Below are positions 2,315-6,692 of a DNA stretch of 6,902 bases, one piece after another. Origin of the DNA: a virus (lineage: Duplodnaviria; Heunggongvirae; Uroviricota; Caudoviricetes); the IMG/VR virus record IMGVR_UViG_2711768074_000020, positions 1-6,902 of that record; one strand, 5' to 3'. The notes under the pieces were generated by a model that was not told the DNA's origin, did not search any database, and saw only the letters and a list, made by a program, of their open reading frames with translations. Each line of letters opens with the position of its first letter. Within the stretch, counting starts at the first letter, position 1. A program made the translations under genes and the position numbers.

Positions 2315-2455
2315 TTACTGCTTACACTGTAAGAACGCCGCAAACTCCGCTCCCCAGAAACTCATCCGTATTTCGCACAGCGAACCGTGCAACATCCAGA
2401 TGATGAGGATTACCGTCACGCAGAACGTGATGGCTGTAAGCGATTTTTGCGACAT
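2315..2455 (-). CDS. Hok/Gef (HokA/PndA-like) type I toxin family small membrane protein, 46 aa
   Basis: Translated by hand from the minus strand: MSQKSLTAITFCVTVILIIWMLHGSLCEIRMSFWGAEFAAFLQCKQ. N-terminal TM segment then W-M-x3-SLCE(I/L)-x8-E-x-AAFL-x-CK, in register with recalled HokA/PndA sequences (two conserved Cys). AAGGAG RBS 8 nt upstream. Absent from the ORF track, which appears to list only ORFs of 60 aa or more. Confidence 0.6.
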   Translation of the reverse strand: MSQKSLTAITFCVTVILIIWMLHGSLCEIRMSFWGAEFAAFLQCKQ

Positions 2456-2645: not shown

Positions 2646-2906
2646 TTAATTCTGAGGTAAAGGCAAACTCATCTGATTGTTTCCCCTGTGTGAAGCTGGT
2701 AGCTCATGCCACGGGATACCTTCTGAAGAGTGAACGCCGGAGGCGTGTTTCGATGTGAATTTATGGAAAGCTTCCAGTGTTGAGAAGCATACGCCGCATT
2801 CCAGATTGTTACACTGGTAATACTTTTGCCGCACGGTGTTTGAATCATTTTCCGGACGACTTGTGCGGATACGGGCAGATGCGCCACAAAGCGGACAACG
2901 GAACAT
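2646..2906 (-). CDS. ogr: Ogr/Delta-family zinc-finger late-gene transcriptional activator (P2 Ogr-like)
   Basis: 86-codon ORF starting MFRCPLCGASARIRTSR...YYQCNNLEC: C-x2-C-x24-C-x4-C zinc-finger spacing and N-terminal MF-x-CPLC signature of Ogr; GGGAGG RBS 5 nt upstream; about 14 aa longer at the C-terminus than the ~72-aa P2 Ogr as recalled. Confidence 0.8.
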   Translation of the reverse strand: MFRCPLCGASARIRTSRPENDSNTVRQKYYQCNNLECGVCFSTLEAFHKFTSKHASGVHSSEGIPWHELPASHRGNNQMSLPLPQN

Positions 2907-3014
2907 AGCGACCTCCCTTAACGTGGTGTTGCCGCTATTCTAGATTGTACGATCCCTAATTCCAACTAACAGCTCGCTCTGTGCGAAGAGTGAAAATTGA
3001 ACTTTCAATAGTTG

Positions 3015-3043
3015 TTGAACTTCCATACATCCAATGTGAAAAT
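3015..3043 (+). promoter_or_regulatory. Putative sigma70-type promoter of the cargo gene
   Basis: TTGAAC (3015..3020), 17-nt spacer, GAAAAT (3038..3043) in a very AT-rich region about 55 nt upstream of the ATG at 3098; alternative -10 CATAAT at 3053..3058. Hexamer matching by eye only. Confidence 0.2.
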
Positions 3044-3097
3044 TCATACGTTCATAATAGTTAAAATTTAAAATATTGTATATCAGGTGAATAAAGC

Positions 3098-4120
3098 ATG
3101 GGAAGAGATATAACGCTGTACCCTAAAAAAGCAACTAGAAACGAACTTAAAAATTACCTTGAAAATTTAGGTTTTAAAAGGTGTAAACATTTGTGGGAAT
3201 GGCCCCAAGGAACGTTGAATTACTCTTGGTTTGATGATACGGACTTCAAATCTACAGATGGAGTTTCGGCTGATATATATCCTGTTTCAAATGACGAACT
3301 ACACATATCTGGTAATAAATGGGCATTGCATGTGCGTAATTTATATAGCGCTAGTTGGCATGATGTAAAAATGCTTAATGATGTTCTAAAAGGCGCACGG
3401 AGTCTTTTTGGTGGAACACTTATAGGTGATTATGGGAAAAATAGGTACGCTCCTCTATGGAAGGATTCTAGTAGTCCGATCAGTCGTGGCATTTCTTCAA
3501 TATTTAATCATGTCCATCATGAGATTTCCGCTGTTAAACATGCCTTACCTGAACCTTCTATTAAATTAAACCTACCGGAAGATGGCGGCTTATCCGAATA
3601 CTTTGATTACATGCAATGTATGGATCCCAGTAGAGTTATATATAATGGATTAGTACCTTTTGCGGTTGCTATGTTTGAATATTTTTTCTCTAGAGCTTTT
3701 CAAATACTTATAAAGTACGATCCTTTCGCAATAGCAAAAAGAACATCGTATAAGCAAAAAGTTGATTTTGATATTCTGCTTGAGATAGAGAAAGGAAATA
3801 TTTCAATAGAAAGTGTTATTGCAAGAAATTACACTTTTCAAAACTTAACCCACCTAAACAAAGCATATAAAGAGTGGCTGGATATAGATGTGAGAGCGAT
3901 TCTTTATAAGAAAAAAAGAATTGGAAAATCAGTTGATTTTCTTGAGAATCGAATTTCTGAAATCATACAATATAGACATGGGATAGTTCATCACTTTGAG
4001 TTGGATAGGACCTTAAATCGGGATGGATATATTCATATATTAGATGCGATAGAAAAAAGCATAATTGAATTTATCCATTACATAGAAGGCAAATACAAAT
4101 TTAAATTAAATGCGTATTAA
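3098..4120 (+). CDS. Hypothetical 340-aa protein, AT-rich moron between D and ogr; helical C-terminal region with an R-x4-H (HEPN-like) motif; candidate abortive-infection/defence protein
   Basis: 340-codon ORF on the strand opposite both flanking phage genes; AGGTG RBS about 8 nt upstream; sampled GC roughly one-third versus over one-half in D and FI (counted by eye); motif YRHGIVHHF at residues 292-300; no recognisable Walker or other catalytic motif in the N-terminal half. Confidence 0.75.
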   Translation: MGRDITLYPKKATRNELKNYLENLGFKRCKHLWEWPQGTLNYSWFDDTDFKSTDGVSADIYPVSNDELHISGNKWALHVRNLYSASWHDVKMLNDVLKGARSLFGGTLIGDYGKNRYAPLWKDSSSPISRGISSIFNHVHHEISAVKHALPEPSIKLNLPEDGGLSEYFDYMQCMDPSRVIYNGLVPFAVAMFEYFFSRAFQILIKYDPFAIAKRTSYKQKVDFDILLEIEKGNISIESVIARNYTFQNLTHLNKAYKEWLDIDVRAILYKKKRIGKSVDFLENRISEIIQYRHGIVHHFELDRTLNRDGYIHILDAIEKSIIEFIHYIEGKYKFKLNAY

Positions 4121-4148
4121 GCAATCAACCTTACATAGGGATGACAAA

Positions 4149-4172
4149 GTCCGCTTCTGACACGGAGCGGAC
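4149..4172. terminator. Putative bidirectional terminator hairpin between the convergent cargo gene and D
   Basis: 9-bp stem (one G·U pair) with 6-nt loop, GTCCGCTTC-TGACAC-GGAGCGGAC; T-rich sequence follows on the plus strand and TTTGTCAT on the minus strand; lies between the stops at 4120 (+) and 4241 (-). Confidence 0.4.
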
Positions 4173-4240
4173 CGTCGTTTATGTTTAATTCTATACTGTA
4201 AACTTGCCAGTTTAAGTCTGAGCTAATATGTCTAAGTTGC

Positions 4241-5350
4241 TCACTCTGTTTCTGCTATCCATTCCGGGATTTTTGCCTCAAGCTCAAGCTGTGTGGTAAA
4301 GCCGCTGTTATCAATGGTGTGCTCGGCTTTTGCAATAATCCAGTCCTGATTATCAATCTCGCTTTTAAAGCCTGTTACCGTGCCATGCATTTCGGGGTAG
4401 AGTTCTGCGCGTCCGCGTGCCAGCATGATGGAGAATGATGCGGCTCCGCGTTGTAGCTGCTGCCACTTTGCCGCCGCTGCGCGTCTTGCTGCCTGCTCGT
4501 TCTGATAAGTCTTGCGTAACACAAACACATTGCCTTCCGCGCCTTCCATATAATCACCTTCACGGCTGCTGCTTTTCTCCTTTTTGGGTTTTGGCGGTTT
4601 GCGGCGTTTCACGCTGACTTTTTTCTTTTTCCCGTAATTAAGATCAAGCCAGTAGGCGCGTACACCCGTATACGCCTCGCGGTCAGCAATGCGGAACTGA
4701 TGGCGATCGCCGCTGCTGCGTGTGATGGCAAACGATGGCAACGGCTGGCCCTGCGCGTTCACGCCACCTCCGGGCATGATGAATAACAGATTACCGCTTT
4801 TTACCGTGGTGATTGCGCCCAGCATTTCCGCCATGCGCGTAAGGAAGGACATGTCGCTTTCTTCGGTCTGGTCGGCGTGGTCGATTTCGATATCCATCAG
4901 CATTTCGCTGATTTGCGGTTTCAGACCATACCGATGAGCGATGGCGGATACCACACGCTCAACGGTCACATCATGCCAGGACACCTCACGTTTAACGTTA
5001 AATTCATCCCGAAAATCTGCGCTTCTGGCTGAAACAGTCAGCCTGTCCGGCGGTCCTTCGTGAGCGATTTCATCAACAATGTAAGTGCCTTTTTCTGTCA
5101 GCGGTTCCCCTTTCCAGCCAATGAGAACCGTCAGACGCGCGCCCCGTGGCGGTAGCTGCAACTGGCCATCGGCATCATCCAGCGTGATGGTGAGCTGGTC
5201 CGCCTCAAATCCCCGGTTGTCGGTCAGTGACAGGTTCATCAGGCGTTCTGCCACGCCGGACAGCGTTTTACCCTCGGCGAGAATATCAAAATCCGGCATT
5301 TTCACGGGGTCTGTGCCCTGACTGAGCAATTGCATGGTGGTGTCGGTCAT
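4241..5350 (-). CDS. D: P2 gpD-like tail protein (late control gene D / gp27-VgrG-like baseplate hub family)
   Basis: ORF track gives 4241..5482, but the ATG at 5350 has a strong GGAGGGAG Shine-Dalgarno 3 nt upstream, whereas the 44-codon upstream extension is Ser/Thr/Arg-rich with no RBS. The 369-aa product is close to P2 gpD in size; motifs such as ESDMSFLTRMAEMLG resemble the gp27/VgrG N-terminal hub fold; same strand as and adjacent to ogr. Confidence 0.7.
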   Translation of the reverse strand: MTDTTMQLLSQGTDPVKMPDFDILAEGKTLSGVAERLMNLSLTDNRGFEADQLTITLDDADGQLQLPPRGARLTVLIGWKGEPLTEKGTYIVDEIAHEGPPDRLTVSARSADFRDEFNVKREVSWHDVTVERVVSAIAHRYGLKPQISEMLMDIEIDHADQTEESDMSFLTRMAEMLGAITTVKSGNLLFIMPGGGVNAQGQPLPSFAITRSSGDRHQFRIADREAYTGVRAYWLDLNYGKKKKVSVKRRKPPKPKKEKSSSREGDYMEGAEGNVFVLRKTYQNEQAARRAAAAKWQQLQRGAASFSIMLARGRAELYPEMHGTVTGFKSEIDNQDWIIAKAEHTIDNSGFTTQLELEAKIPEWIAETE

Positions 5351-5507
5351 CTGCTCCCTCCCTGTGTGGCATGGTCGCATGTGCGTGCGGAGGGGGTTAC
5401 TGCTTTTTGTTGTCGCCGTGGCGGGAGAACGGCGCAGGGGTGAGATTACGCGCGTGGTGGGTGATGATTGTTGCCGAATCATTTAACGGATACAAGGGGC
5501 TGAAGCT
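5351..5507. promoter_or_regulatory. Divergent intergenic region between D (-) and FI (+), presumably carrying late promoter(s)
   Basis: 157-bp GC-rich spacer between two divergent start codons, each with its own RBS (AGGGG 8 nt upstream of the FI ATG). No clear TGT-N12-ACA Ogr-type dyad was seen by eye. Confidence 0.3.
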
Positions 5508-6692
5508 ATGAGTGAAACTCGTTTTCATGGTGCCCGTGTTACGGAAAATACCGACCTGGTAACAGCGATTAACGATGTTGATTCCAGCGTTATCGGTATC
5601 GTGGTAACGGCGGATGATGCGGACGCGAAGCTGTTCCCGCTGAACAAGCCCACACTGCTGACCCGCGTCAATGACGTGCTGGGAAAATGCGGAACAACGG
5701 GGACGCTTTATCGTGCGCTTAAGGCCATCGCAGACCAGGTGAGCACAAAGGTGATCGTCGTTCGCGTGGCTGAACACAAAGAAGAAGACGAAAAGACGCA
5801 GGATCAACTGGTTATCGGTGGTTCTGAGGATGACGGCAGCTATACGGGGATGTATGCGCTGCTTGTTGCAGAGCAGGATGAAAGCATCGGATACCGTCCG
5901 CGTATTCTGGCCGCGCCGGAGCTGGACACGGAGGCGGTGACAAAATCCCTGTGCGTGATTGCGGGTAAACTGCGCGCATTTGTGTATGCCTCATGTCACG
6001 GCTGTAACACGATGGCTGAAGCGATTACCTACCGCCAGAAATTCAACGAACGTGAAGTGATGCTCTTATGGCCGGACTTCATCGCCTACAACCCGAAAAG
6101 TGGCGAAAACGAAACGTTCCCCGCGCCTGCTTATGCGTGCGGCCTTCGTGCGTACATTGACCATGAGCAGGGCTGGCACAAATCGCTGTCCAACGTTCCG
6201 GTTAAAAATGTGCTGGGGATGTCGAGGCATGTGTTCTGGTCGTTGCAGGCCGAAGACAGCGATGCCAACAGCCTCAACAACAAAGAAATCACGACCATTA
6301 TTCGTCGCAACGGGTTCCGCTTCTGGGGCAACCGCACACCGGAAACGAACGCCTACATTTTTGAGGTGTATACCCGAACCGCACAGGTGCTGGCTGATTC
6401 AATTGCGGAAGCGCAGTTTGAAACCATCGACAGTCCACTGACGCCTGCGAACGTGAAGGATGTTATCAGTGCCATCAGGGCAAAACTGGATTCACTGGTT
6501 ACTGCCGGGAAACTGATTGGCGCAGAGTGCTGGTATGACGTGGTGGATAACAGCACCACGGATTTACGTCAGGGGCGTGTGCGTATTCGCTACAAATATA
6601 CGCCCGTTCCGCCACTGGAAGACATGGAGCTTTACCAGACGTTTACTGATGAATACTTTGAACCCGCATTTGCGGTGCTGGGAGGTGCCTGA
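5508..6692 (+). CDS. FI: P2 FI-like contractile tail sheath protein
   Basis: 394-codon ORF; motifs FPLNKP, GFRFWGNRT, YTRTAQV, HEQGWHKSLSNV and YKYTPVPPLED match the recalled P2-family tail sheath; the stop overlaps the next start (TGATG). Confidence 0.85.
   Translation: MSETRFHGARVTENTDLVTAINDVDSSVIGIVVTADDADAKLFPLNKPTLLTRVNDVLGKCGTTGTLYRALKAIADQVSTKVIVVRVAEHKEEDEKTQDQLVIGGSEDDGSYTGMYALLVAEQDESIGYRPRILAAPELDTEAVTKSLCVIAGKLRAFVYASCHGCNTMAEAITYRQKFNEREVMLLWPDFIAYNPKSGENETFPAPAYACGLRAYIDHEQGWHKSLSNVPVKNVLGMSRHVFWSLQAEDSDANSLNNKEITTIIRRNGFRFWGNRTPETNAYIFEVYTRTAQVLADSIAEAQFETIDSPLTPANVKDVISAIRAKLDSLVTAGKLIGAECWYDVVDNSTTDLRQGRVRIRYKYTPVPPLEDMELYQTFTDEYFEPAFAVLGGA

Follow-up and report, generated by a model that had tools for sequence, protein, structure and literature searches.

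The window analyzed here, a stretch of 6,902 nucleotides, carries between the ogr and D genes of a P2-like prophage a single open reading frame that most likely (with a probability of about 0.65) encodes a stand-alone two-domain protein of the toxin type with a C-terminal HEPN RNase, acquired horizontally as a single-gene cassette and serving an abortive-infection-type defense of the lysogen. The protein is annotated in RefSeq as 'hypothetical protein' and consists of an N-terminal alpha+beta domain and a C-terminal HEPN domain (Table 1). Its reading frame lies on the strand opposite to both ogr and D and is convergent with gene D; its start, MGRD..., is kept in the homologues. A scan for sigma-70 promoters upstream of the frame gave no convincing candidate, the matches being no commoner than in shuffled sequence, and a terminator-like hairpin is located between the two convergent genes. 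The cassette would in that case bring its own ribosome-binding site and terminator, and be read antisense to the late operon at the ogr/D junction.

Table 1. Position of the cargo gene, its parts and its neighbors in the window.
Feature	Position	Strand	Basis
Ogr/Delta-like zinc-finger late activator of the P2-like prophage	2646-2906	-	annotation
Inserted cargo cassette, about 1.28 kb	2943-4226		blastn against the empty site, GC content
Shine-Dalgarno-like AGGTG, 8 nt upstream of the ATG	3085-3089	+	read from sequence
Cargo reading frame, 340 aa (WP_000532200.1 in E. coli PEC240), stop codon included	3098-4120	+	ORF list
N-terminal alpha+beta domain, about residues 1-125	3098-3472	+	
Long connecting helix between the domains, residues 127-149	3476-3544	+	AF2 model
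C-terminal helical HEPN domain, about residues 166-333 (Pfam match 181-329)	3593-4096	+	
E194, invariant acidic residue of the second HEPN motif E-x3-[K/R]	3677-3679	+	
F247-Q248-N249, family-specific conserved motif in an insert between HEPN core helices	3836-3844	+	
R293-H294-G-I-V-H298, HEPN R-x4-H motif (putatively catalytic)	3974-3991	+	sequence, conservation, alignment to DS-33A
Intrinsic-terminator-like hairpin, 9-bp stem with 6 GC pairs, then a T-rich tail	4149-4172	+	
P2 late-control/tail protein D (VgrG/Pvc8-like); longest ORF reaches 5482	4241-5350	-	annotation, ORF list
Tail sheath FI	from 5508	+	

The GC content of the cargo reading frame, 33.7% versus 54.6% for gene D and about 54% for the flanks, marks the gene as foreign. 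In a P2-like prophage that is otherwise 97% identical, the ogr-D junction is empty and the cassette is absent (blastn). Compared with this site, the cassette constitutes a clean insert in place of the 42-bp spacer between ogr and D. A TCTA(G/A) microhomology with respect to the empty site (GCTATTCTAAGTTGCTCA) is found at both edges of the insert (2939-2943 and 4223-4229), which suggests that short-homology or illegitimate recombination, and not a site-specific element, brought the gene there. Among 5426 E. coli genomes, 65 carry the cargo gene. The D/ogr pair occurs in about 1457 complete E. coli genomes, the cargo gene in 65 and always as a single chromosomal copy, and most of these junctions have no insert and retain the 42-bp spacer. 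Other cargo found at the junction, on either strand, comprises genes for a 356-aa PIN-domain protein, a 389-aa DUF3800 protein and a YecA-family protein, next to other hypothetical genes. Since different genes, or none, are present there across genomes, the ogr/D junction (window 2907-4240) is a variable cargo site. It was not found among the P2 hotspots described in the hotspot literature that was examined.

A comparison with more distant hosts revealed a similar mobility. Homologues with 64-82% identity are encoded in Pantoea, Proteus, Shewanella, Aeromonas, Pseudomonas, Halochromatium and Methylococcaceae, and their surroundings differ: they lie in a lambdoid prophage close to SIR2_2, in an island with integrase, AlpA and DUF927 genes next to a UvrD-type helicase, in an island at smpB that also holds AbiTii and a type I restriction-modification system, and alongside a DUF4160/DUF2442 pair. 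Several homologues are singletons among housekeeping genes, with no recognizable defense neighbors. In nine contexts (the locus in the window and eight others) no neighboring gene recurred. The varied mobile contexts and the lack of a recurring neighbor indicate an accessory gene that is self-sufficient and spreads horizontally, and this behavior fits with a role in defense or as a toxin. An abortive-infection role is plausible in view of the context, i.e. prophage cargo at a variable junction here, and SIR2_2, AbiTii with a type I restriction-modification system, and a UvrD-type helicase as neighbors elsewhere.

The HEPN RNase might also be the toxin of an addiction or toxin-antitoxin-like module that stabilizes the prophage or island. 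The neutralizer would then be the protein's own N-terminal domain, acting as a fused cis-antitoxin as in the fused MNT-HEPN proteins, or an unrecognized small RNA or peptide. We consider such a module rather unlikely.

The position of the gene between the late activator ogr and the tail gene D, convergent with the latter, raises another option, namely that the RNase modulates prophage or host transcripts, for instance the late-operon or ogr mRNA, for the own benefit of the P2-like phage and not for immunity against other phages. RNA-processing proteins with a HEPN domain do exist, as exemplified by Las1, the KEN domain of Ire1/RNase L, and Swt1 (PMC3710099). Nevertheless, the fact that the gene accompanies the D/ogr pair in only 65 of about 1457 genomes, most of which have no insert, implies that the P2-like phage does not need it. 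Moreover, homologues with 65-82% identity reside in unrelated hosts and on elements other than P2-like phages, and the low GC content is that of foreign cargo. A role in the life cycle of the phage or in the processing of its RNA is accordingly quite improbable.

The window as such corresponds to the left end of a prophage of the P2-like type that adjoins the host gene flk in E. coli, and it is matched at 99-100% identity by E. coli IHE3034, PEC240 and others. Several features of this locus are worth recording in their own right. Gene D (-) and the tail sheath gene FI (+) are divergent here (window 4241-6692). The block FI-FII-E-E'-T-U runs opposite in direction to D/ogr and to the block V-W-J-I-H-G, in contrast to P2 itself, in which the order of these genes is collinear. 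A DNA invertase gene is found at the far end of the FI-FII-E-E'-T-U block, and the divergent D/FI arrangement is common to many E. coli genomes. Just outside ogr, at the prophage end, lies a gene for a killer peptide of the Hok/Gef family (46 aa, window 2315-2455, - strand). A scan of the window with Rfam at the gathering threshold returned no RNA family, and hence no RNA of the hok/sok type. Between the host gene flk and the prophage there are two further genes, one for a 297-aa protein in which the motif 'RLSCYD' recurs and which is annotated as 'type VI secretion system-associated protein TagO' (823-1716, - strand) and one for a 110-aa zinc-ribbon membrane protein (1721-2053, - strand). No integrase was seen on the flk side. 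The cargo gene is also carried by record NC_049343.1, 'Escherichia phage 500465-2', classed among the Peduoviridae (Gemsvirus). This record includes the host genes flk, fabB and mnmC, an MFS transporter and IS621, and the presence of these host genes identifies it as a predicted prophage region, not as an isolated virus or packaged genome.

The assignment of the C-terminal half of the cargo protein to the HEPN superfamily started from an R-x4-H motif, pointed out in a sequence-only reading of the window. The motif is indeed there: positions 3974-3991 read AGA CAT GGG ATA GTT CAT, or R-H-G-I-V-H, at residues 293-298 of the reading frame, followed by H299-F300 inside the segment ...ISEIIQYRHGIVHHFELDRTL.... 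It had been added that so short a motif is only suggestive, and rightly so. At least one R-x4-H was obtained in 52% of 20,000 shuffles of the protein, and an R-x4-6-H in 89%. The bare pattern is at chance level in the cargo protein. In fact, a second R-x4-H (RDGYIH, residues 308-313, window 4019-4036) starts 15 residues after the first. It is variable in the family, with K/R/D/P at position 308 and K/R/S/N at position 313, and as it is not conserved it should be considered a chance occurrence. The first motif behaves differently. When 76 full-length members of the family, with 19-62% identity to the query, were aligned, E194, R293 and H298 (each 76/76) emerged as the sole invariant columns, and it is this invariance of R293 and H298 that raises the motif above chance. 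At position 294, 73 of the sequences have H and the other 3 have N, and F247 and Q248 are found in 75/76 and 74/76, respectively. Four residues after the glutamate, position 198 is K or R in 54/76, the cargo protein itself having S198 followed by R199. The trailing H-F, which had been noted together with the aromatic residue that often follows the motif in HEPN domains, is not conserved in this alignment: the positions after the motif vary, with R/E/H at 299 and A/F/G at 300.

The catalytic signatures of HEPN domains have been defined as R-x4-6-H, a polar residue (N, D or H) directly after the arginine, and, further upstream, an acidic residue that as a rule belongs to E-x3-[K/R] (Anantharaman et al. 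2013, PMC3710099). All three are present in the cargo family. The profile search gave the same picture. The only Pfam family matched was HEPN_RiboL-PSP (PF18735), with residues 181-329 aligned to positions 29-189 of the 191 of the profile. The scores of the cargo protein itself, 22.5 bits (E 1.2e-4) for the full length and 24.1 bits (E 3.8e-5) for the C-terminal domain alone, are below the gathering score of 28.4 bits. The profile is matched at E<=0.01 by all 42 of the close homologues (best 1.5e-8) and by 47 of the 76 distant ones (best 5.1e-9). Furthermore, most family clusters bear a precomputed PF18735 assignment, and the UniRef name for the exact cargo sequence is "RiboL-PSP-HEPN domain-containing". 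The family, which has a fixed architecture of about 340 aa, comprises 295 clusters at 90% identity in one database; a second database has 340 representatives of it at 50% identity, of which 210 match at E<=1e-10. Two alternative architectures encountered in the representative search (P0123 and P0194) were rejected as frameshift or assembly artefacts with low-complexity tails.

Structure prediction agreed with this assignment and corrected one detail of the initial observation. The full-length AF2 model (pLDDT 83.8) shows an N-terminal alpha+beta domain, a connecting helix and a helical C-terminal domain, with the motif in a hairpin of low confidence (pLDDT about 60) and not in a helix. A model of the C-terminal domain only, built from a more diverse alignment, reached a pLDDT of 88.8. 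In this model R293-H298 occupies the C-terminal end of helix 282-299 and continues into the loop that precedes the last helix (308-333). The motif is thus situated not at the start of a helix, as had been supposed, but at the end of the penultimate one, and the domain has the organization of a HEPN fold, i.e. a helical bundle in which helix 3 ends with the motif, ahead of the loop to helix 4. Other searches were less informative. A sequence search of the PDB with the family profiles returned no HEPN or other significant chain. Foldseek against the viral structures of BFVD gave nothing at E<=0.001, the best match being an 'RNaseLS-like protein' (E 0.02, probability 0.25). With the cargo protein, NCBIfam gave no match and PHROGs only noise (E 0.09). 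The Pfam match, the conserved signatures and the model of the C-terminal domain all favor the HEPN reading of the motif region, and on every criterion that could be tested the cargo protein is a member of the HEPN superfamily. It is best placed in or beside the RiboL-PSP-HEPN clade, with its own score below the Pfam threshold.

A counterpart of R293 can be found in a validated defense protein. The 'GNAT' system DS-33 of E. coli was validated within the DefensePredictor study (PMC13092281). Its HEPN component DS-33A (WP_014639476.1, 320 aa) is remotely homologous to PD-T4-2_B (Vassallo et al. 2022), a RiboL-PSP-HEPN protein. According to the same study, wild-type DS-33 gives 3.3-5 log protection against T7, T3, Bas67 and Bas26, and this defense is abolished by deletion of the HEPN gene. 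Deletion of the GNAT partner leaves protection intact, slightly higher even on T7 and T5 (Table S7 of that study). The RiboL-PSP-type HEPN protein thus works alone in DS-33, since loss of the partner does not lower protection. The R258A variant of DS-33A retained 0.78 log on T7 (3.78 for the wild type) and 0.37 log on T5, and on these T7 and T5 data it loses most of the protection (PMC13092281). In an hhalign comparison of the cargo family with DS-33A the C-terminal halves only were aligned, over about 175 columns, with a score of 25.3, to be compared with 13.3 +/- 2.0 (maximum 19.3) for 60 shuffles. The register places E194 on E159 and R293-H298 on R258-H263. R293 is thereby the homologue of a residue that, on the reported data, is needed for full phage defense in a related protein.

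A HEPN fold need not be a nuclease. The C-terminal domains of kanamycin nucleotidyltransferases, sacsin and part of MtlR have ligand- or protein-binding roles, and R293 and H298 might likewise have been retained for binding. Such domains typically lose the R-x4-6-H motif (PMC3710099), whereas in the cargo family the R, the H and the acidic residue are the sole invariant positions, and the equivalent arginine is required for full defense in DS-33A, on the T7 and T5 data of PMC13092281. A non-catalytic function is therefore very improbable. That an unrelated helical protein acquired the motif by chance, as its frequency in shuffled sequences and the non-conserved copy at 308-313 could suggest, is effectively refuted by the conservation and the fold.

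The N-terminal domain sets the family apart. It has the topology beta-alpha-beta-beta-beta-alpha-beta, is matched by no Pfam family and shows conservation no weaker than that of the HEPN half. The M1-G2-R3-D4 start is invariant among close homologues. A cluster of polar and glycine residues is conserved (G55, R80, S86, D89, N94, G105, G106, D111, G113, N115 and R116), with D89 in 75/76 and N94 in 72/76 of the sequences, and G105-G106 and the G113-x-N-R-Y loop are kept family-wide. This strong conservation suggests a specific binding or catalytic pocket. The domain had been viewed as a sensor; it could equally be RNA-binding or regulatory.

Taking the defense-toxin reading as a basis, the following course of events can be proposed. 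R293 and H298, together with H294 and E194, would form a metal-independent RNase site. By analogy with RnlA, HepT, Csm6, Cas13 and HepS, two protomers would pair their R-x4-H motifs at the dimer interface to create a composite active site, and cleavage of RNA would be expected to leave 2',3'-cyclic phosphate ends. A free, constitutively expressed HEPN RNase without an antitoxin needs autoinhibition, and this we assume here. In the resting lysogen, either the site would be covered or the dimer wrongly assembled. A probable contributor to this is the N-terminal domain, which most likely holds the nuclease off until infection or else may aid in the binding of trigger or substrate. Infection by another phage would then release the nuclease, and the cleavage of mRNA or tRNA would stop translation and abort the infection. 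Counted against this reading were S198 in the cargo protein, the sub-threshold Pfam score, the low confidence of the motif in the full-length model, the homologues that occur as singletons and the zero matches in PADLOC.

A more far-reaching interpretation, tentative and on balance doubtful, is that the family, with about 340 clusters at 50% identity, represents an undescribed single-protein immune sensor-effector. The near-invariant set R80, S86, D89, N94, D111, N115 and R116, together with the FGG...GKNRY loop, would in that case make the N-terminal domain a new sensor, or even a second enzymatic domain, that recognizes a phage protein or small molecule and gates the HEPN RNase. The ogr/D junction, with its PIN-domain, DUF3800 and YecA-family cargo, would at the same time be a previously undescribed defense hotspot of P2-like phages.

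Should the cargo gene be a working defense gene, it would add one more solo HEPN Abi protein to HepS, Tha, DS-11 and DS-33A, with a new N-terminal domain whose trigger escape mutants could help to map. In P2-like prophages, the ogr/D junction is a further cargo site worth mining. As the domain is already recognized by Pfam and UniRef, and a prophage-borne HEPN RNase toxin is a well established principle, the gain is an incremental one.

No study of the cargo protein was found in the literature searched, and it is absent from the sequences examined in the DefensePredictor supplement (PMC13092281). With the RiboL-PSP-HEPN proteins (PF18735; PMC3710099) the cargo protein shares nearly the whole profile as well as the conserved R-x4-H, the polar residue after the arginine and the upstream glutamate. 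The clade as first described is fused to an endoRNase L-PSP domain or encoded in an operon with ParB, whereas the cargo protein has neither: L-PSP (PF01042) gave no match in the protein, and no ParB neighbor was seen in the nine genomic contexts. The cargo family instead has its own N-terminal alpha+beta domain without a Pfam model.

DS-33A and PD-T4-2_B, both E. coli defense proteins, have a C-terminal HEPN of the RiboL-PSP type in common with the cargo protein. The similarity to DS-33A is remote (15% identity), only the HEPN halves align and the N-terminal halves are unrelated, that of DS-33A weakly matching HEPN/RES-NTD1 (PF18870), whereas that of the cargo protein does not. Moreover, a GNAT-type gene is adjacent in DS-33, whereas the cargo gene has no GNAT or other partner. 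A search with PADLOC-DB v2, the PD-T4-2 models included, returned zero matches at E<=10, and the cargo gene is solitary. Membership of the RnlA/LsoA (RNase LS) group was rejected, with an hhalign E-value of 0.6 against RnlA of E. coli K-12 and no antitoxin gene of the RnlB/Dmd type present; given this E-value, the resemblance to RnlA is at most structural. Likewise, no MNT nucleotidyltransferase antitoxin is adjacent or fused, and the protein was not assigned to the HepT/MntA type VII toxin-antitoxin systems. The lactococcal AbiD/AbiF (Abi_2) proteins are single-gene Abi proteins with a HEPN domain too, and the RiboL-PSP-HEPN clade is distantly related to them (PMC3710099), but the cargo protein matches neither Abi_2 in Pfam nor AbiD/AbiF in PADLOC and its N-terminal region is different.

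HepS, a solo HEPN anticodon nuclease of the lambdoid prophage Gifsy-1, is a single domain of 218 residues that is triggered by the tail-tip protein J and targets tRNA-Thr, -Ile and -Ser (PMC13043305). It has no detectable sequence similarity to the cargo protein, and its prophage is lambdoid, whereas that of the cargo gene is P2-like. The cargo protein is not a member of PD-T4-2, DS-33, RnlA/LsoA, HepT/MntA, AbiD/F or HepS. Nevertheless, HepS and Tha provide precedents for solo Abi proteins with a HEPN domain in prophages, and by analogy the cargo protein would work like those systems, but with an N-terminal domain of its own and no partner.
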